This document shows, one piece after another, positions 41,401 through 62,101 of a stretch of 64,000 nt of DNA. Position numbers and translations under genes: made by a program. The first letter of the stretch is position 1; each line of letters begins with the position of its first letter. Source of the DNA: a virus (lineage: Duplodnaviria; Caudoviricetes). Under the pieces are notes generated by a model. The model searched no databases. It was not told the origin of the DNA and saw only the letters and a program-made list of their open reading frames with translations. The stretch lies in the IMG/VR virus record IMGVR_UViG_3300014057_000005, positions 1-64,000 of that record, one strand, 5' to 3'.

Positions 41401-44400
41401 TCAACGCTCAACACGACAACTCCCGTAATTATCGGGCGTTACGGTCAGAACGGTGGCAAGGGCGATAAAGGTGATACCGGAAGAGGAATCACAAGCATCG
41501 CGGAGCATTATCAAGTATCTTCGTCAAACACCACCGCGCCTTCAAGCTGGTCTGATACGATGGTCAATACCACGGCTACGAATAAGTATCTGTGGAATTA
41601 TGAGACGATCACCTACACGGACGGCACAACTGAGGACAGCACGAAACGTGTTATCGGCACTCATGGCGAAAAAGGTGACACTGGCGCATCAATCGCATCC
41701 GTCACCAACTATTACCTCGCATCGGCATCTTCAAGCGGAGTGACCACCTCGACAAGCGGTTGGACAACGAATCCGACAGCATCGGCAGCCACGATGACTT
41801 CTACAAAGCAGTATCTTTGGAATTACGAGGTCATCAAGGATAGCAACAATACAACGATAACAACCACTAGCCCTGTTATCATCGGCAGATACGGGCAAAA
41901 TGGCGGTACAGGTTCAGCCGGAAAAGGCATCACCGGAATTACAGAATACTATCTTGCCACAAGTGCTTCAAGCGGTGTAACCACCTCGACAAGTGGGTGG
42001 ACTACTGCTGTTCAATCCACGACAGCTACGAATAAGTATCTCTGGAACTATGAGGCTATCAGCTATACGAGCGGTAATCCGTATACATCTGATCCGCGTA
42101 TCATTGGCACTTATGGAGATAAGGGCAATAAAGGCGACAAGGGGGATAAAGGTGATAAAGGTGATAAAGGCGATCGCGGCGCGACATGGTACGCAGGCAC
42201 GGGCATCACTGGCACATCCACAACAGCCACAACATTCAGCGGTTCCGGAGTGGCTTCTGCCATAGTTGGTGACCATTACCTTAATACGTCCACACAGAAC
42301 GTATATCGTTGTACGGTTGCAGGCGCGGCATCTACCGCAAAGTGGGTGTACGAGCAGAATATCAAGGGCGCACGGGGAACACAGGGTGTTAAAGGTGATA
42401 CTGGAGATACTTGCTACTTCCATATCAAGTATTCCAATGACGGCGGCGCGACATTCACTGGCAACTCCGGCGAGGATGCTGGCTCGTATATCGGCACATA
42501 TTCCGACAACACAGAAGCCGACAGCACATCTGTATCATCCTATAAGTGGGTAAAGATTGAAGGCGATGACGGCACATCCGTTACCGTATCTTCTATCAAG
42601 TACGCGGTCAGCACAACGGAATCTCAGCCTGCCGACAGTGCGTTCACCTATAATTCCGTCCCGACAGTTGCCGAAGGACGCTGGCTCTGGACGCTGACAA
42701 CCTATAGCAATGGCAGTAAGGCGTATACGAAAGCGAAGCAGGGGCAGAAAGGCAATGCCGGAACTTCGGTAACGGTTTCTTCGATAAAATACGCCGTGAC
42801 CACAACGGAATCACAGCCCGCTGATTCGGCATTTACTTATAACTCAGTCCCGACAGTAGCGGAGGGTTCGTGGCTTTGGACGCTGACTACGTTCAGCAAC
42901 GGTTCGAAAATATACTCCAAAGCGAAACAGGGCAAAGCCGGAACAAACGGAACAACCTTCACTCCTTCTGTAGACGCAAGCGGCAATATCTCGTGGACAA
43001 ATGATGGCGGGAAGACGAATCCCACTGCGGTAAATATTAAGGGGCCGCAGGGCGATAAAGGAGATAAAGGCGTTGGCGTTACCAGCATCACAAAGACCGG
43101 AACGAGCGGGACGGTAGACACTTACACAATCAAATACACCGATAACACCTCAACAACCTTCACCGTAACCAATGGAACGAACGGTACAAACGGAACATCT
43201 GCGGAATGGTTCTACGGCACAGCCCTGACGCATACATCCGGCACAGCTACTGCTACGATAAGCGGAGCGAAGGTCGGGGATATGTACCTCAATACCGCTA
43301 CAAGCAACGTGTATAAGTGTACTGCCAAAAATGTCTGGACTTATGCCGGGAATATTGCGGACGGAGTTATCGACAATATTAGCATTGGTGGAAGGAATTT
43401 ACTTGGGCGTACTGCAAATCCAGTAGTTCCCGAAATGGTAGACGGTTCGGCGAACGCTACTTTTGGAACTATAGCCACCTATAATACACATGATATAACT
43501 TTTAATATTGAGAGATTTGATGATGCATCAAACGCGATTGTTTGGACAGATAGTTCTACTGGCAATCGTGGCATTGCTTGGTATACAGGAGTAGGCATAG
43601 TTGCCAAAGGCGAAACCGTTACGTTTTCATGCATGGCAAAGTCGAGCGTGGCTACCACGATCCATACCCATACCGCATGGAGAAAAGGTTCGAAAACCGC
43701 AAGATATGATGGTTGGACTTCGGCGGGTTCAAAAAGTATAGCGGCAAATATTTGGACAAAATACGAGTATACTTTTCAATCCGCGTCCGCTTTTGATGAG
43801 GGGGAATTTCTGGTCGCGCTGTGTTTCTCGGGCGTTTCAACTGGTGCAACATTTAGTATAGCACAAGCGAAACTCGAAAAAGGCAACATTGCTACTGGTT
43901 GGACTCCTGCTCCAGAGGATGTGCAAGCAGATATTGAAGCGGTTCAAGAAGCTGCGGACGAAGCTCAAGCCACAGCAGACCGCAAGAAGCAGACTTTCAT
44001 CTCAACACCGACTACTCCATATTACGTCGGAGATACGTATTTCGTTAACGGCAAACTGCTTGTCTGTCGTACGGAAAGGCTTACCGGATCGTATACAGCA
44101 GATGACTGGTCTGAAGATCTAGGCTATGCGTCGTCCGATACGGTTGCGACACTGGAAGCCAGCACAAAGACCGAACTCGACACCATCAGAAGCGAAGCAT
44201 CTGCGAACTATACTTCGCTGTCGGATTCTCTCGACAAGATACAGGCAAGCTTCAACACGCAGGTCGAGCAGACTTCAGAAGACTTCTCGATCCGCATCAA
44301 CGGTCTGCTAGAATCGCTGACATCGCTTGCGAACGATACTTCTACTAAGTTCGCGGAATATTCGAAGTATTTTCGATTTACTGCGGACGGTCTGGAAATC

Positions 44401-57841: not shown

Positions 57842-59158
57842 TTACACCTCGCTAAGAAGGTCTGCATCCATTGAAGCGACCTGCTCGTCTGTTAGGTTAT
57901 CCACTGCAATTCCGGCCAGACACTTGAACCAGAATCCCTTGGTCTTATAGGCTGTAAATTTCGGCCTATCTGCCAGAGTGACAACCACGCCCTCCGTGAT
58001 ATGCGTCCCGTTAGAAAGCGGTTCCGGTTGGTCTAGATACTTTTCACATCTGGCATTTAGGTCTTCCCATGTCGTGTAGAAGAACCGCTCAAGATAGGGG
58101 ACTGTATCTAATCCATGATTCGCGCACCATCTTCGCATTGTTTCATGCGGGATATCGAAGACCTCGCCATCTTCATTGGTAATCGTCATTCTATAGATGT
58201 ATGCGTGGCTCTCGCCGGGTTCGCAGCCGTAGTCGAAAACCATACGGTCGCCGTATCGTTTACGAAAATCTTTGTCGGCAACCTTTTTGACATCTGCTAC
58301 TGGCATAATCGGGGTCGAATCATTGACATACCCTACCAGTTCGCCATAGATTGTTACACCCTTCGGAAGAATCGGAGCAAGCTGTTCGGTGTACTTCTTG
58401 CGGAACTCGTTGCTCCCGTAGTAGCCACCGGAGTAATCATCGTCTAAGATGACCTTGCGTGTGCCACCTACAACCTTCCATTTCTTTTCAACAATTTCTT
58501 TTCTTGTCGGATGGAGGATCCGCTGAAGTAGGGTCGGCTTCTTATGGATCTCTTCAAGAGTGTTGCCAACGCGGAAGGAAGTACCGTGTAGCTTTCTTGT
58601 CAGATAAACCAGATCGCCCTCGTGAAACGCGTCTTGATTATAGGCAAGCTGCTCGGTATCAACATGTGGTTCAAAAAACGGAAACTCCGTGGTTTTTACC
58701 TTCTTTTTTCTCTCACCTCTCTTACCGCCGCCATTGCCTCTCTGGTTTCTTCGTATCGGAATGTATTTTCTACAAATAACCTCGTCGCCAAATTCGGAAA
58801 TTGCCTGACCTACTACTAACTTGGTTACATCACAATACGGGGATAAAACCTCAATCGGGAGGACAAGCCCCTCGGATTTTTCTTTTCGCAGCCGGATAGC
58901 CGTGATATTCCGCTTGCTAGGATCCATGTACCCGCCAATGTTGTTGCCGTCCGCGTCTTTCTTGCGAAGCAGGTTATTTTCTTCGCAAAACCGTTCGCTT
59001 AACTGTCCATCGACAGGAAAGTAAACGCACTTCTGTCCTTCATGATATTTAAGGTCGGTAATAACATTCTGTCCGTAGACCTCGAAGCACTGGAGCCGGT
59101 CTGCATTCGTGTGCTTTCTCGGCTCAGGCAGTTCTACAATATAAGCTTTATATGCCAT
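57842..59158 (-). CDS. RNA ligase (Rnl2/DRB0094-like with N-terminal OB domain)
   Basis: HTNADRL, SEGL, motif I KLHGT, IYGE, EGVVV, KTK. Confidence 0.85.
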   Translation of the reverse strand: MAYKAYIVELPEPRKHTNADRLQCFEVYGQNVITDLKYHEGQKCVYFPVDGQLSERFCEENNLLRKKDADGNNIGGYMDPSKRNITAIRLRKEKSEGLVLPIEVLSPYCDVTKLVVGQAISEFGDEVICRKYIPIRRNQRGNGGGKRGERKKKVKTTEFPFFEPHVDTEQLAYNQDAFHEGDLVYLTRKLHGTSFRVGNTLEEIHKKPTLLQRILHPTRKEIVEKKWKVVGGTRKVILDDDYSGGYYGSNEFRKKYTEQLAPILPKGVTIYGELVGYVNDSTPIMPVADVKKVADKDFRKRYGDRMVFDYGCEPGESHAYIYRMTITNEDGEVFDIPHETMRRWCANHGLDTVPYLERFFYTTWEDLNARCEKYLDQPEPLSNGTHITEGVVVTLADRPKFTAYKTKGFWFKCLAGIAVDNLTDEQVASMDADLLSEV

Positions 59159-60071
59159 CTCTCTCCTCTCTCTTACAAGCTTTTACATCCGCCTCGTGCA
59201 GTTTTCGAAGCGAGTTGTAAAACTCCTCTCCCAAAAACTTCTTATCCCGTTCTTCTGCTCTTGGCGACTTACTCCATACGAACGGACGCATATGCCAACG
59301 AATCAGATTTGCGACCTCTAATGTGTACTGCACCGTATGTCCGCCAGTAAGAAGATGCGGTAATACATAATAGCTTGAGCAGCAATCGTGCCCGTAGTAG
59401 TGCGCAACGCCGTTCTCATCGAAGGACTGGGTAAATAGCTTCCCATAGTCATGATAAAGAGCCGCGCAGAATAGCTTGGTATCACAAGGGCAACAGTTCC
59501 ATGCCGTGAGTGCGCAGTGTTCGCCGAGCGTATATGGATGGTGAGGATTGCGCTGGTCGAACCCATCAATTTTACGCAAATCCATCATGCCGTCTTTACT
59601 TTGGACGCTTGGCGGCATCAAAAGTTCGATATCGTCCCAACCTTCTTGAAACATAGGTGGGTCGAAACTGGTAAGTTGTCTCGTATACACCTCATCAGGG
59701 ACAACAAACTCGCGTTTTACATTCCGCTCCTTCAACATTTCTACTGGCAAGACAAAACACTTTAATTCCTTGCGACACGGGACTTTGGCAATCTGCTCTA
59801 AGAAAGCCATGCGCCGTTTACGCTTGATGTTGGTCGCGTCATATACAACGGTCTGCCCATTGCGAAGAGCCGCTATAGCGCGACCGTGCAATTCGCTAAA
59901 GACCTGTCTCTGTTCTTTCTGGCTATACCCACCAGAGCCGAAGAGGTTTCGCCGGATTTCATCTGACGATAAGACCACATACTCTGGGTAGACAATTCTC
60001 GCCGAGTGTGCCCAAGACGACTTCCCAGAAGCAGGTAAACCCATTAACATAATCAGTCGTGCTTCTTCCAC
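59148..60071 (-). CDS. Polynucleotide kinase (P-loop) fused to HD phosphohydrolase
   Basis: GLPASGKS, SSDEIR, DATN; HHPYTLGEH, HDYGK, WHM, EAD; GTG start at 60071. Confidence 0.85.
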   Translation of the reverse strand: MEEARLIMLMGLPASGKSSWAHSARIVYPEYVVLSSDEIRRNLFGSGGYSQKEQRQVFSELHGRAIAALRNGQTVVYDATNIKRKRRMAFLEQIAKVPCRKELKCFVLPVEMLKERNVKREFVVPDEVYTRQLTSFDPPMFQEGWDDIELLMPPSVQSKDGMMDLRKIDGFDQRNPHHPYTLGEHCALTAWNCCPCDTKLFCAALYHDYGKLFTQSFDENGVAHYYGHDCCSSYYVLPHLLTGGHTVQYTLEVANLIRWHMRPFVWSKSPRAEERDKKFLGEEFYNSLRKLHEADVKACKREERDGI

Positions 60072-60229
60072 GCCCCCACTCTCCCTCTCGGTTCGCACCT
60101 CTGAACGTAACCGTCCTCGTAGTAAATCTCTGTGCAGTATCCGTCTGTACTTGCATGTGTTACTTCGCCATGTTCTCGGCGGGGATAGAAACGCTTTGGG
60201 TCTTTGTGTTTTCTGTCGTGTCGTCTCAT
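60053..60229 (-). CDS. Small hypothetical protein (58 aa, not in the ORF track)
   Basis: AAGGAG RBS; ATG overlaps the upstream TAA. Confidence 0.5.
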   Translation of the reverse strand: MRRHDRKHKDPKRFYPRREHGEVTHASTDGYCTEIYYEDGYVQRCEPRGRVGAWKKHD

Positions 60230-60402
60230 TATTCTCCTTTGCCAAAGAGGAAAGCTTTGTCGTTACACAGGTCTCTAACGTTCGTTCTCGTGATCCGCCC
60301 AGTATAGAGGCATGACGGGCATCGGTAATATTTAACGATTCGTCCCGGCTCGAAATGGTATGCGCGGTGCATCTTTATACCGCACTTCTTGCAAATCTTC
60401 AT
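60229..60402 (-). CDS. Small Zn-ribbon protein
   Basis: CKKC...CPSC; AAGGAG RBS. Confidence 0.6.
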   Translation of the reverse strand: MKICKKCGIKMHRAYHFEPGRIVKYYRCPSCLYTGRITRTNVRDLCNDKAFLFGKGE

Positions 60403-60413
60403 GCAGGCTCCTT

Positions 60414-60593
60414 TCATTCCTTATCTGGACTATTGTTTTTAATAGGCCAAAAGTATTCGCACCTCTCGCATCCGGGTTCCCTCGGAGTCTCTACAAAATA
60501 CGACTGCCAATAAGGATCTGGCTTTGCAGTAAACCGCCAACACCGATTCCTGTCTCGGCATCCCGCATCCCTACACATCGTAATATCTGGCAT
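60414..60593 (-). CDS. Small Cys-rich phage protein
   Basis: MPDITMC...C...CWRF...QSYF...CEYFW; AAGGAGG RBS. Confidence 0.7.
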   Translation of the reverse strand: MPDITMCRDAGCRDRNRCWRFTAKPDPYWQSYFVETPREPGCERCEYFWPIKNNSPDKE

Positions 60594-60612
60594 CGTCCCC
60601 TCCTTTCGAGAA

Positions 60613-60682
60613 TTAGAGCGGCGGGATTCGAACCCGCATTTGCAGACTACAATTCTGCCCTCCCACCAATGAGTGCACCCTA
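60613..60682 (-). tRNA. tRNA-Thr(UGU), atypical, no encoded CCA
   Basis: Acceptor TAGGGTG/CGCTCTA, anticodon arm GCAGA-ATTGTAG-TCTGC, T arm GCGGG-TTCGAAT-CCCGC. Confidence 0.7.
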
Positions 60683-60763
60683 ACAAACACGCTAACCAAA
60701 AGTGAAATAGTGAGATGTTTTGCTAAAATATGTGACAGTTAGCTAGTTAACGAGTTTTATATG

Positions 60764-61123
60764 ACAACCCGTCACAATAGCAGCCGTGCGATGAATTATC
60801 GAGCAATTGCGTCTCCAACCCCTTAAACGTTCCTCACGGATTTTTGGATTTAGTAAACAATGTTTTCTATTACATATTACATAAACAAGTTCTAATACTT
60901 ACTGAATACTCATTGAACAATAATGAGTAAGCAATAACCAATCCGACGTTCAGTTTGCCATTTTTAAAGCGCATAGCTGTCGCGCTAAAAACGGCTCTTT
61001 TAGAATAATCGTAATCGTACTTGATTATGTAGGGGCGGTTCTTTTTATTGTTTTACTTTGTTCAGACCGCCGAACAGAACAAAGGGACGCAAGTTCATAA
61101 TTTTCGCTACTGTGACAGGTTGT
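60764..61123 (-). ncRNA. Candidate 360-nt structured RNA closed by an 18-bp stem, with a pseudoknot
   Basis: ACAACCTGTCACAGTAGC pairs with GCTATTGTGACGGGTTGT, including two G.U pairs valid only on the - strand. Confidence 0.7.
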
Positions 61124-61132
61124 AGGTCAAGA

Positions 61133-61771
61133 TCAATAACTGATCGTGATCTCGTGTGTTGCGTTTGCGACCTGAATCGCCGCATCAACACCTGCCTCAA
61201 AGGCATCGACCTCATCCTGAAGCTTTTTCGCCTGTGTCATCGCCCCAAGCGGGTCAATCAGAACCACCTGATTGTTCTTCTTGAAGCTCTCGACGAATTC
61301 CATGTAGTCGGCGGAACTCGACTTCTCCTTTGCGCCAAACATTGCGGCGGCGGCGGCTTCTGCGGCGCGATCGAGCTTATCTCCGTTGGCTGCAAGAGCT
61401 TTACCACGGGCGTTTTCATACTGCGTGTTAAGCCTTAAAATCAGCGCACGCTTCCAGCTGTCCGCGAAGTTGTTAAGGAAGATCGCCTGCGCGATGGTGT
61501 ACTCGTGTCCGGCAACAATGATCGTTGTAGACGCGTTGTACTGGCTTACAGCGGCCTTCATAGCTTCATATCGAGCCAGAAGATCGATTGCGGACTGGAA
61601 GTTCGCCTTTGCTGCCTTCTCGAAGGCTTCGATATCAACACCAGCCACCTTTTTTGCAGTAGCCTTGTTCGGCTCAACCGCGTCCAGATCGTTAAGGGCA
61701 CGATCAAATTTCTTTTCAGCGGTTTTAATTTCGCACAGTGCCTGATGGACGGTCATAGTTTCAGTTCTCAT
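61133..61771 (-). CDS. Coiled-coil protein of unknown function (212 aa)
   Basis: MRTETMTVHQALCEIK...YTIAQAI...LIDPL...VDAAIQVANA; GGAGG RBS; true start lies after the tRNA. Confidence 0.8.
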   Translation of the reverse strand: MRTETMTVHQALCEIKTAEKKFDRALNDLDAVEPNKATAKKVAGVDIEAFEKAAKANFQSAIDLLARYEAMKAAVSQYNASTTIIVAGHEYTIAQAIFLNNFADSWKRALILRLNTQYENARGKALAANGDKLDRAAEAAAAAMFGAKEKSSSADYMEFVESFKKNNQVVLIDPLGAMTQAKKLQDEVDAFEAGVDAAIQVANATHEITISY

Positions 61772-61809
61772 ACATTTCCCTCCGTAATAAATACTATTGT
61801 TTTTAGTAA

Positions 61810-61881
61810 CTGGGGTGGCAGGATTCGAACCTGCGCGTGTAGGAGTCAAATTCCTAAGCCTTACCGCTTGGCAACACCCCA
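61810..61881 (-). tRNA. tRNA-Gln(UUG), no encoded CCA
   Basis: TGGGGTG/CACCCCA acceptor, GCCAAGCGGTAAGGC D arm, TAGGA-ATTTGAC-TCCTA anticodon arm, GCAGG-TTCGAAT-CCTGC T arm. Confidence 0.92.
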
Positions 61882-61885
61882 AAAT

Positions 61886-62065
61886 GTCAATCGGAACTGG
61901 ACGACATGTTGCTAGAGTCGTGCATGTGCCTATCTCTAGATTCGGTTGAGTCGCGACCTCAATTGCAATGGTTGTATGGAAAGCGCTGCCCTTTCCCGGA
62001 ATCATTCCGCCGTCGATTTTTGCCTTCACGTCTAAAGGCTTTTTGTTCAACCAGTTCCTTTTGAC
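61886..62065 (-). ncRNA. Candidate 180-nt multibranch RNA at the transcript 5' end
   Basis: Closing stem GTCAA..GGAACTGG/CCAGTTCC..TTGAC enclosing five hairpins; begins at the predicted TSS. Confidence 0.6.
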
Positions 62066-62072
62066 AATAAGG

Positions 62073-62101
62073 ATTATACCATTAGTCCACATGTATGTCA
62101 A
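62073..62101 (-). promoter_or_regulatory. Perfect extended sigma-A promoter
   Basis: TTGACA-17 nt-TATAAT with TG, AT-rich upstream element. Confidence 0.88.

Follow-up and report, generated by a model that had tools for sequence, protein, structure and literature searches.

The minus strand of positions 61123-60764 of the window (the whole stretch of DNA analysed, 64,000 nucleotides (nt), positions 1 to 64,000 of the IMG/VR phage record IMGVR_UViG_3300014057_000005) encodes a conserved, closed, doubly pseudoknotted non-coding RNA. Immediately before it on the same strand is a gene for a 212-amino-acid (aa) protein of the family of T5.085 from coliphage T5, and the gene and the RNA form a genetically tied pair. 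We call this RNA the heptad RNA after the 7-nt-periodic array that it carries. Two pseudoknots lock both ends of the RNA into one core, from which a variable hairpin and the heptad array extend. The source record is 108,215 nt long (108 kilobases, kb), with an estimated completeness of ~82%; the protein and the RNA each occur once in it. The parts of the pair, from 5' to 3', are as follows (helices are numbered P; PK is the loop pairing of the first pseudoknot).

61772-61808, minus strand: leader of the protein gene, with the heptad-phased UA words UAUUUAUUA abutting the Shine-Dalgarno sequence GGAGG, as judged by UA-spacing tests
61133-61771, minus strand: gene of the 212-aa helical protein, T5.085 / phrog_1491 family, stop codon included (TGA 61135-61133)
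60764-61123, minus strand: whole non-coding RNA, 360 nt, from the first to the last base of P1
61106-61123, minus strand: P1, closing stem, 5' arm (aligned helix: 96.4% of cells paired, double changes in 13 of 15 pairs)
61101-61105, minus strand: GAAAA junction after P1, invariant (in the alignment G24, A25, A26 and A27 are invariant and A28 nearly so)
61085-61092, minus strand: P2, long-range pseudoknot, 5' strand (77.1% paired, double changes in 7 of 11 pairs)
61077-61084, minus strand: P3, stem of the H-type pseudoknot, 5' strand (CUUUGUUC)
61066-61071, minus strand: PK, 5' strand in the P3 loop (GGCGGU)
61056-61063, minus strand: P3, 3' strand (GAACAAAG), followed by a conserved GUAAAA and an A-rich linker
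61034-61039, minus strand: PK, 3' strand (ACCGCC), 27 nt beyond the PK 5' strand
60945-61033, minus strand: variable region with a hairpin; relatives have a tRNA or tRNA mimic at this spot, and natural variants lack 60954-61024 of it
60846-60944, minus strand: heptad array, 99 nt, ~14 units of 7 nt of the UAYUGAN type (from z-scores at lags 7, 14 and 21)
60835-60839, minus strand: P5, 5' strand (CCGUG), preceded by a conserved AAAUCC (98.7% paired, double changes in 3 of 5 pairs)
60807-60816, minus strand: P2, 3' strand, within the P5-closed domain
60784-60788, minus strand: P5, 3' strand (CACGG), running into an invariant GGCUG
60764-60781, minus strand: P1, closing stem, 3' arm

An earlier reading of the letters alone (the sequence-only reading) had proposed at this place a helical protein followed directly by a structured RNA, and every element that it described was found. 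The 212-aa open reading frame (ORF; 61771-61133) is followed, 9 nt after its stop codon, by the 5' arm of an 18-nt inverted repeat (61123-61106 and 60781-60764), which an inverted-repeat search recovered with 324 nt between the arms. The two deviations between the arms are G.U pairs on the minus strand, and the RNA gives 18 consecutive pairs. There are 449 nt without a credible ORF between the stop of the gene and a downstream tRNA-Thr; only ORFs of 34 aa (60870-60974) and 56 aa (61045-61215, overlapping the end of the gene) are present, as had been claimed of this segment. The 449-nt stretch folds with a minimum free energy of -121.6 kcal/mol, compared with -95.7 +/- 5.2 kcal/mol for its shuffled versions (z = -4.98), and none of 100 shuffles was as good.

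Covariation was evaluated in a MAFFT alignment of 30 distinct copies with lengths of 355-489 nt. RNAalifold recovers P1 (15 pairs) and P5 (5 pairs) from this alignment, with compensatory changes at nearly every variable pair. Jointly, P1, P2 and P5 pair in 90.0% of the alignment cells, versus 66.5% upon shuffling (0 of 500 shuffles as high) and 36-44% with the partners slid against each other. Double-sided changes were found among the 30 homologues in 23 of the 31 pairs of these helices, with a covariation score of 0.683 versus 0.251. P2 is formed by the strand after the GAAAA junction and a segment inside the P5-closed domain; it crosses P5 and is therefore a second, long-range pseudoknot.

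The 3' strand of PK is mis-registered by the MAFFT alignment, and P3 and PK were thus judged by duplex stability, comparing the duplex of each sequence with its own partner strand (cognate) to the duplexes with partner strands of unrelated sequences (non-cognate). The cognate and non-cognate energies were, respectively, -7.1 and -3.5 kcal/mol for P3 and -11.2 and -5.7 kcal/mol for PK; the same comparison gave -23.1 and -8.8 kcal/mol for P1, -9.9 and -5.1 kcal/mol for P2, and -7.3 and -3.4 kcal/mol for P5. Inspected sequence by sequence, the same helices are formed by differing sequences, and the arms of P1 differ in every relative with the pairing kept. Because cognate duplexes are far more stable and different sequences form the same helices, the H-type pseudoknot described in the sequence-only reading (stem CUUUGUUC/GAACAAAG, loop pairing GGCGGU-ACCGCC) is real and conserved. 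The CCGUG/CACGG helix that had been noted as closing the 3' domain also stands, with compensatory changes in the relatives. The window copy conforms to the plan of the family, in which P1 is flanked 5' by GAAA(A/G) and 3' by (G/A)GCUG.

The weakly paired middle of the RNA had been described as a run of quasi-repeats. The repeats are there, and they are better described as an array with a strict 7-nt period: averaged over 33 copies (including those of T5, PVP-SE1 and D-1873), the z-scores of self-matching are 4.1, 2.8 and 1.8 at lags of 7, 14 and 21 nt, and the window copy alone scores 3.7, 3.2 and 2.8. In copies without an inserted hairpin the array is 98-107 nt long, corresponding to 14-15 units. 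The unit is UAYUGAN-like in the rumen/gut clade and AAAGNNN-like in the measured copies of T5, PVP-SE1 and D-1873, and A-rich units of the AAAG type were read by eye in the arrays of BM15, KIL3b, Ea35-70 and phiCDIF1296T. Period and length are thus constant across clades and the unit word varies. A unit that changes at a fixed spacing would suit a co-evolving reader, although shared ancestry alone would give the same pattern.

The region between the pseudoknot and the heptads differs between natural copies. Contigs of metatranscriptome studies X17 and X20 carry a variant without 71 nt (60954-61024), and contigs of X18 and X16 have other replacements at the same spot. The hairpin is dispensable, given the X17 and X20 variants, which agrees with its variability in the alignment. 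In a sister clade, ARAGORN detected a complete tRNA within the RNA itself, after the pseudoknot domain and before the heptad array (L029 2850-2922, L032 1781-1855, L035 1908-1980, L036 1694-1765, L040 2133-2206, L042 2794-2867 and L053 2558-2632). The anticodons of these embedded tRNAs are UUU, CAA, GGU and AGA, and those called 'Leu' and 'Ser' are just 74-75 nt long, so they lack the long extra arm. In the copy of Erwinia phage Ea35-70 (L061 2253-2316), the variable region contains a T-arm, then an acceptor-like hairpin and then a D-arm, arranged as in YrlA RNA; the match to that model reaches 44.5 bits, below the gathering score of 69 (E 8e-7).

When viral contigs were scanned with one protein sequence as the query, no relatives turned up, and alignment-based scans then succeeded: a profile built from 54 homologues retrieved 14 IMG/VR loci, 37 metagenome loci and one contig of a metagenome-assembled genome. 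At most of the IMG/VR loci the gene lies within or beside a tRNA array, and the ~360-720 nt behind it contain no ORF. Profiles of the 5' and 3' domains of the RNA matched 42 of the 52 searched loci (the window and 51 loci fetched via the protein, some being the same contig from two collections), always on the strand of the gene and just downstream of it. Of the remaining loci, most are truncated at the gene or close to it, or have a copy that escaped the profile, as L012 does. In the reverse direction, a scan of viral contigs for the RNA pattern returned 117 stretches, mostly noise, with two true copies; both have the gene upstream, and one is on a contig already fetched via the protein. The co-occurrence on one strand supports an RNA that travels with the upstream protein, and the physical binding implied by the earlier proposal of a partnership stays an inference.

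The pair extends to cultured phages. With blastn, the sole match to cultured phages was a tRNA. With tblastn, the protein was found in 629 cultured-phage records, including T5.085 itself and genes of Salmonella and Escherichia phages (T5-like and rV5-like) as well as of Vibrio, Pseudomonas, Bacillus, Klebsiella and Erwinia phages; the annotation of PVP-SE1 itself ties its gene to T5.085. An exhaustive profile search gave 3,103 cluster representatives at E <= 0.001, of which 2,205 also pass E <= 1e-10, and nearly all of the 150 representatives listed are 200-230 aa long. Every sampled cultured-phage record has an unannotated gap of 363-1,233 nt behind the gene. The same architecture was recognized there by eye in T5, PVP-SE1, Clostridium botulinum phage D-1873, Vibrio phage Chester, Pseudomonas phage KIL3b, Erwinia phage Ea35-70, Bacillus phage BM15 and C. 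difficile phage phiCDIF1296T. The shared order is P1, GAAA junction (altered in BM15 and KIL3b), P3 with PK, heptads, AAAUCC-P5-GGCUG and P1. A strict architecture script found the copies of T5, D-1873 and Chester, missed those of BM15, KIL3b, Ea35-70 and phiCDIF1296T and mis-called that of PVP-SE1, so that the latter five are given from reading by eye. The T5 copy lies behind T5.085 at 43142-43504 of NC_005859 (L056 15143-15505), where the record annotates no RNA, only a 'promoter' immediately past the gap. The spacing between gene and RNA varies: in PVP-SE1 the RNA starts ~75 nt after the stop codon, behind another hairpin, and at locus L161 it is ~260 nt from the gene.

The protein matches phrog_1491 over its full length (E 2.5e-42, residues 3-210 on profile positions 2-209 of 211) and has no sequence match in Pfam, NCBIfam or the PDB. 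AlphaFold confidently predicts a helical bundle with a small sheet made of the termini and a hairpin, with a predicted local distance difference test score (pLDDT) of 92.9. Foldseek retrieved nothing from the PDB at E <= 0.001, and in a wide fold search the best match was 3kdq_A (Z 11.0, root-mean-square deviation 6.4, 151 residues aligned), itself of unknown function; a search of the literature on Cgl0159, DIP1984 and 3KDQ gave nothing useful. The matches in BFVD are exclusively uncharacterised phage proteins. In the T5 record T5.085 is labelled 'tail fiber protein', and we found no supporting evidence for this label in the present analyses. One relative, P0188 (474 aa), matches the profile in three stretches (best 270-472), which suggests a tandem-duplicated form.

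Modelled in two copies, the protein gave a symmetric homodimer with a score of 0.67, compared with 0.00 for the best of three controls. In a benchmark, this mark was reached by 20 of 30 proteins solved as one-chain pairs and by 1 of 23 proteins solved as single chains. At least 96% of the contacts are shared between runs, and the partner has a pLDDT of at least 88. The oligomer prediction that had been suggested along with the sequence-only reading thus passes its controls, and the models support the T5.085-like protein being a probable homodimer.

Further signs of a connection between the gene and the RNA come from the leader. The word TATTTATTA occurs in the 64-kb window only at the leader of the protein gene, where UAUUUAUUA abuts GGAGG. 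Exact 6-mers of each RNA's own array were not significantly enriched in the leader in most loci, and tests of UA spacing were used instead. In the 32 nt before the Shine-Dalgarno sequence, across 18 lineages of the clade, UA-N5-UA pairs amount to 1.61 per leader and occur in 13 of the 18 leaders, versus 0.23 and 0.07 per leader for other genes of the same loci and of the window (Mann-Whitney p = 5e-11, a value that overstates independence since the compared leaders are mutually related). The UA-UA spacing peaks at 7 nt, with 29 occurrences compared with 6.5 +/- 2.6 in composition-matched shuffles. Nine leaders of cultured phages give a lag-7 z of 3.2 and, by reading, contain A-rich words of the type of their own clade. 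These heptad-phased words are supportive, though not conclusive, of a link between gene and RNA.

Of the 24 public sequencing runs listed, 20 contain all or part of the stretch, five of these being recorded as RNA libraries. Contigs of four metatranscriptome studies (X16, X17, X18 and X20) were mapped to the window, contig-free stretches not being read as absence. In three of the four, the sole contigs, or the deepest one, cover just the RNA: X18 has a contig at 60770-61064, X20 one at 60803-61085, and X17 a 434-nt contig at 60659-61152 with a depth of 30.8 versus 2.6-2.9 for the contigs in the gene and upstream, contig depth being one crude figure per contig and unfit for ranking expression. 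These contigs hint at a discrete, abundant RNA rather than prove one. Together with the covariation in five helices, they support the discrete structured RNA that had been proposed from the sequence.

We compared the RNA with known families and systems. At gathering scores, Rfam gave only tRNAs in the window. With relaxed cut-offs a single pertinent match came up, RAGATH-27 (RF03100), which aligns collinearly over all 86 model positions (1-86) to 61116-61033, with 30.3 bits against a gathering score of 76.1 and an E value of 0.11 on 1.6 kb or 0.032 on 457 nt. At the gathering score, neither the window nor 14 related loci matched RAGATH-27, and at E <= 1 none of ten related loci did. The element order is the same (part of a P1 arm, CGAAAA, the P3 stem, the model's one annotated hairpin, equivalent to the PK helix GGCGG/CCGCC, and the A-rich linker), whereas the model spans less than a quarter of the heptad RNA and is without the P1 partner, P2, the heptad array, P5 and the protein. 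RAGATH-27, an orphan candidate small RNA motif in Rfam, is reportedly one motif of a 2017 survey; the name RAGATH denotes motifs near genes that associate with twister or hammerhead ribozymes. No twister ribozyme was found in the window at gathering scores, and one related locus has a sub-threshold twister-P1 match upstream of the gene (L003 2176-2244, 59.1 bits vs 67.2). We treat the RAGATH-27 match as the same 5' domain seen in a sister lineage rather than as proven membership. We found no paper on the whole RNA or on the gene-RNA pair in the literature on GOLLD and ROOL, T5 stable RNAs and structured phage RNAs, and nothing on RAGATH-27 or T5.085. For the whole molecule there was no Rfam match at the gathering score and no paper, and the claim that the RNA is undescribed is qualified by the 86-nt sub-threshold match; in public catalogues the RNA is represented, if at all, by an orphan motif that corresponds to its first 86 bases.

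ROOL and GOLLD are large pseudoknotted orphan phage RNAs that often lie beside tRNA genes (PMC5737381), and a preprint reports them as RNA-only complexes (bioRxiv 10.1101/2024.12.08.627333). The heptad RNA resembles them in being large, pseudoknotted, phage-borne and often located in tRNA clusters, and differs in its size (360 nt versus ~580 and 800), its heptad array and its dedicated neighbour protein. Neither ROOL (RF03087) nor GOLLD (RF01998) matched at E <= 10 on 60500-62100 or at gathering scores in the window. With YrlA RNA (RF02553) and its partner Ro60/Rsr the heptad RNA shares a stem made from both ends, a modular build and adjoining RNA-repair genes; in the Salmonella rsr-yrlBA-rtcBA operon, Y RNA-like RNAs lie next to RNA-repair genes. 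Y RNAs, in contrast, have neither pseudoknots nor a heptad array, and the window copy has no tRNA mimic. The YrlA model did not match the window copy, giving merely 12.1 bits on the T-loop of tRNA-Thr, and no TROVE/Rsr match was found in the 108-kb record, which is ~82% complete.

Oligomeric proteins that read many regularly spaced short units are known, namely TRAP with GAG/UAG triplets, HutP with UAG at 7-nt spacing, and CsrA with its CsrB/RsmZ sponges, and attenuation systems of this kind also control a leader. The heptad array resembles their targets in principle only: the helical fold is unrelated, the 7-nt units have no one fixed triplet, the scaffold is knotted, and binding is putative. 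The stable RNAs of T5 (RNAI, RNAIII, RNA1, RNA2, RNAX and others; NC_005859) are likewise phage-encoded, of unknown function and located in or near the T5 tRNA cluster; the record lists eight of unknown function, and the heptad RNA copy is not among them. In type III toxin-antitoxin systems, tandem repeats of ~34-45 nt lie upstream of the gene of an endoribonuclease toxin that cuts them into units. An antitoxin role, one of the options of the sequence-only reading, does not fit in this known (ToxIN-like) form: the RNA has 7-nt units and follows the gene, its long-range closing helices covary, and no toxin fold matched the helical bundle of the protein, no PADLOC search having been made.

The surroundings of the pair in the window are the following.

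62073-62101, minus strand: sigma-70-type promoter-like site (TTGACA, 17 nt, TATAAT, with TG before the -10 element) upstream of tRNA-Gln; 12 of 12 consensus positions match, and the assignment is from the consensus match alone
61809-61882, minus strand: tRNA-Gln (UUG), 5' neighbour of the module, 57.8 bits
60612-60683, minus strand: tRNA-Thr (UGU), 3' neighbour, 80 nt past the RNA, 38.2 bits
59148-60245, minus strand: AAA_33 kinase with an HD domain, downstream
57842-59158, minus strand: RNA ligase, downstream

Both tRNA genes of the 108,215-nt record flank the protein-RNA module, and the record has no other tRNA.

We infer that the gene product and the RNA form a ribonucleoprotein. The explanation that we favour as a whole combines a structured, co-transcribed RNA, an array read by protein dimers, and feedback at the leader, and we give it about an even chance of being right. 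The RNA would be transcribed together with tRNA-Gln, the protein messenger RNA (mRNA) and tRNA-Thr from the promoter-like site at 62101-62073 and then be cut out as a stable species. Its heptad array would be a platform whose units are bound and read one by one, with the upstream protein, putatively bound as dimers, as the strongest candidate for the reader. The same protein may also bind the heptad-phased words beside its own ribosome-binding site, in which case free protein would limit its own synthesis and the RNA would set the amount needed. From the context of tRNA genes, kinase-HD protein and RNA ligase, our guess is a role in tRNA or RNA metabolism during infection. Besides the limits attached above to the leader statistics and the contig depths, several observations weigh against this explanation. 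Sequence-domain and fold searches recognized no RNA-binding fold or domain in the protein, and its mildly acidic character (isoelectric point 5.5, family median 5.9) disfavours a classical RNA binder. The array is partly self-complementary and may pair, as for example through inverted repeats at 60899-60937 in the window copy. A/U-rich leaders are common translation enhancers, study X16 has one contig, perhaps DNA, spanning the whole operon, and behind the gene of Aeromonas phage LAh_6 the RNA was resolved neither by the script nor by eye. A bolder version is doubtful: a new kind of phage ribonucleoprotein in which dimers would polymerise along ~14 length-fixed heptads on a knotted scaffold, repress their own translation and act on the tRNA pool or RNA repair.

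Acidity and the missing RNA-binding fold would be expected if the RNA acted by itself, as a ROOL/GOLLD-like multimer or a tRNA-related scaffold with the protein as a syntenic neighbour or folding chaperone. The ornate, closed, doubly pseudoknotted architecture, the location in phage tRNA clusters, as for ROOL and GOLLD, and the tRNAs or tRNA mimics inside the RNA of relatives point the same way. We nevertheless consider such a machine rather unlikely, since the protein-then-RNA order is kept in very distant phages, heptad-phased words occur at the protein's own ribosome-binding site, and a 7-nt-periodic single-stranded array is more typical of a protein platform than of an RNA-RNA interface. 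The reader of the array could also be a host protein: ~14 short repeated units on a stable scaffold might sequester a host nuclease or RNA-binding protein (for instance a defence enzyme directed at tRNAs, or a global RNA-binding regulator), as CsrB does with CsrA, which would suit the tRNA and RNA-repair genes (kinase-HD 59148-60245, RNA ligase 57842-59158) and the tRNA-like inserts of relatives. A host-specific target is argued against by the occurrence of AAAG-type units in phages of very different hosts (Escherichia, Salmonella and Clostridium as measured; Bacillus, Pseudomonas and Erwinia by reading). Moreover, the unit type tracks the phage lineage of the partner protein, a pattern that shared ancestry would also give, and the heptads do not look like anticodon loops, since by reading position 37 would be occupied by a pyrimidine. 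We hold a decoy of this kind to be unlikely.

Because the RNA starts 9 nt past the stop codon, on the same strand and inside a tRNA operon whose neighbouring tRNAs supply RNase P and RNase Z sites, it might instead be a cis-acting 3' element of the protein mRNA or the tRNA operon, serving processing, stability or termination. Its 360 nt, two pseudoknots and length-conserved array go beyond the size and complexity of such an element, three metatranscriptome studies have contigs over the RNA that do not cover the gene, and in PVP-SE1 (behind a hairpin) and L161 the RNA is detached from the stop codon at the distances given above; this makes a cis element quite improbable. What would remain is an element acting as DNA, either a miniature inverted-repeat transposon or an origin or iteron array, as the 18-nt terminal inverted repeats and the A/T-rich repeat array might suggest. 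A miniature inverted-repeat transposable element was rejected: the element is single-copy in the 108-kb record, and its arms are wholly different between relatives, in every one of which the pairing is kept, with G.U on one strand only. The 7-nt period also mismatches the DNA helical repeat, the position is fixed relative to one gene, and RNA-library contigs cover the element. Given the single copy and the strand-specific G.U covariation, the DNA reading, for which we see hardly any chance, can in practice be dismissed.

In bacteria and phages, few non-coding RNAs are both large and highly structured, and every one that is now well understood has added a new field to biochemistry. The heptad RNA is conserved across phages of the rumen and gut, coliphage T5, rV5-like Salmonella phages and phages of Bacillus, Clostridium, Vibrio, Pseudomonas and Erwinia. 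To the sequence-only reading the analysis adds the P2 pseudoknot, the strict 7-nt periodicity and the heptad-phased leader words. The fixed-length 7-nt array suggests a counted, unit-by-unit assembly of protein on RNA, which, if true, would be a new example of this principle; and if the bolder version given above were true, a conserved, organelle-like phage ribonucleoprotein would have been overlooked even in the model phage T5. T5 and PVP-SE1 are easy laboratory phages, so RNA production, heptad binding and the effects of losing the RNA or the protein are directly testable.

Some further observations concern the neighbourhood of the pair. In the window, the kinase-HD protein and the RNA ligase make an RNA-repair pair adjoining the module, and two small Cys-rich ORFs lie between tRNA-Thr and the kinase, one matching phrog_20586 (stretch 57842-60596, minus strand). 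About 180 nt (61885-62072) separate the promoter match (62101-62073) from tRNA-Gln, and study X17 has a separate contig at 61936-62127. At related loci, a SAM riboswitch above its gathering score lies 135 nt past the heptad RNA (L011 4228-4312), a group I intron match reaches 49.7 bits vs 50 (L007 4712-4921), and in D-1873 a drum RNA (RF02958; L055 3898-4005) scores 47.7 bits, above its gathering score of 43, ~430 nt past the heptad RNA in the same non-coding gap. In LAh_6, the gene just upstream of the T5.085-like gene (L062 1097-1393) is annotated as a ProQ-like RNA chaperone.

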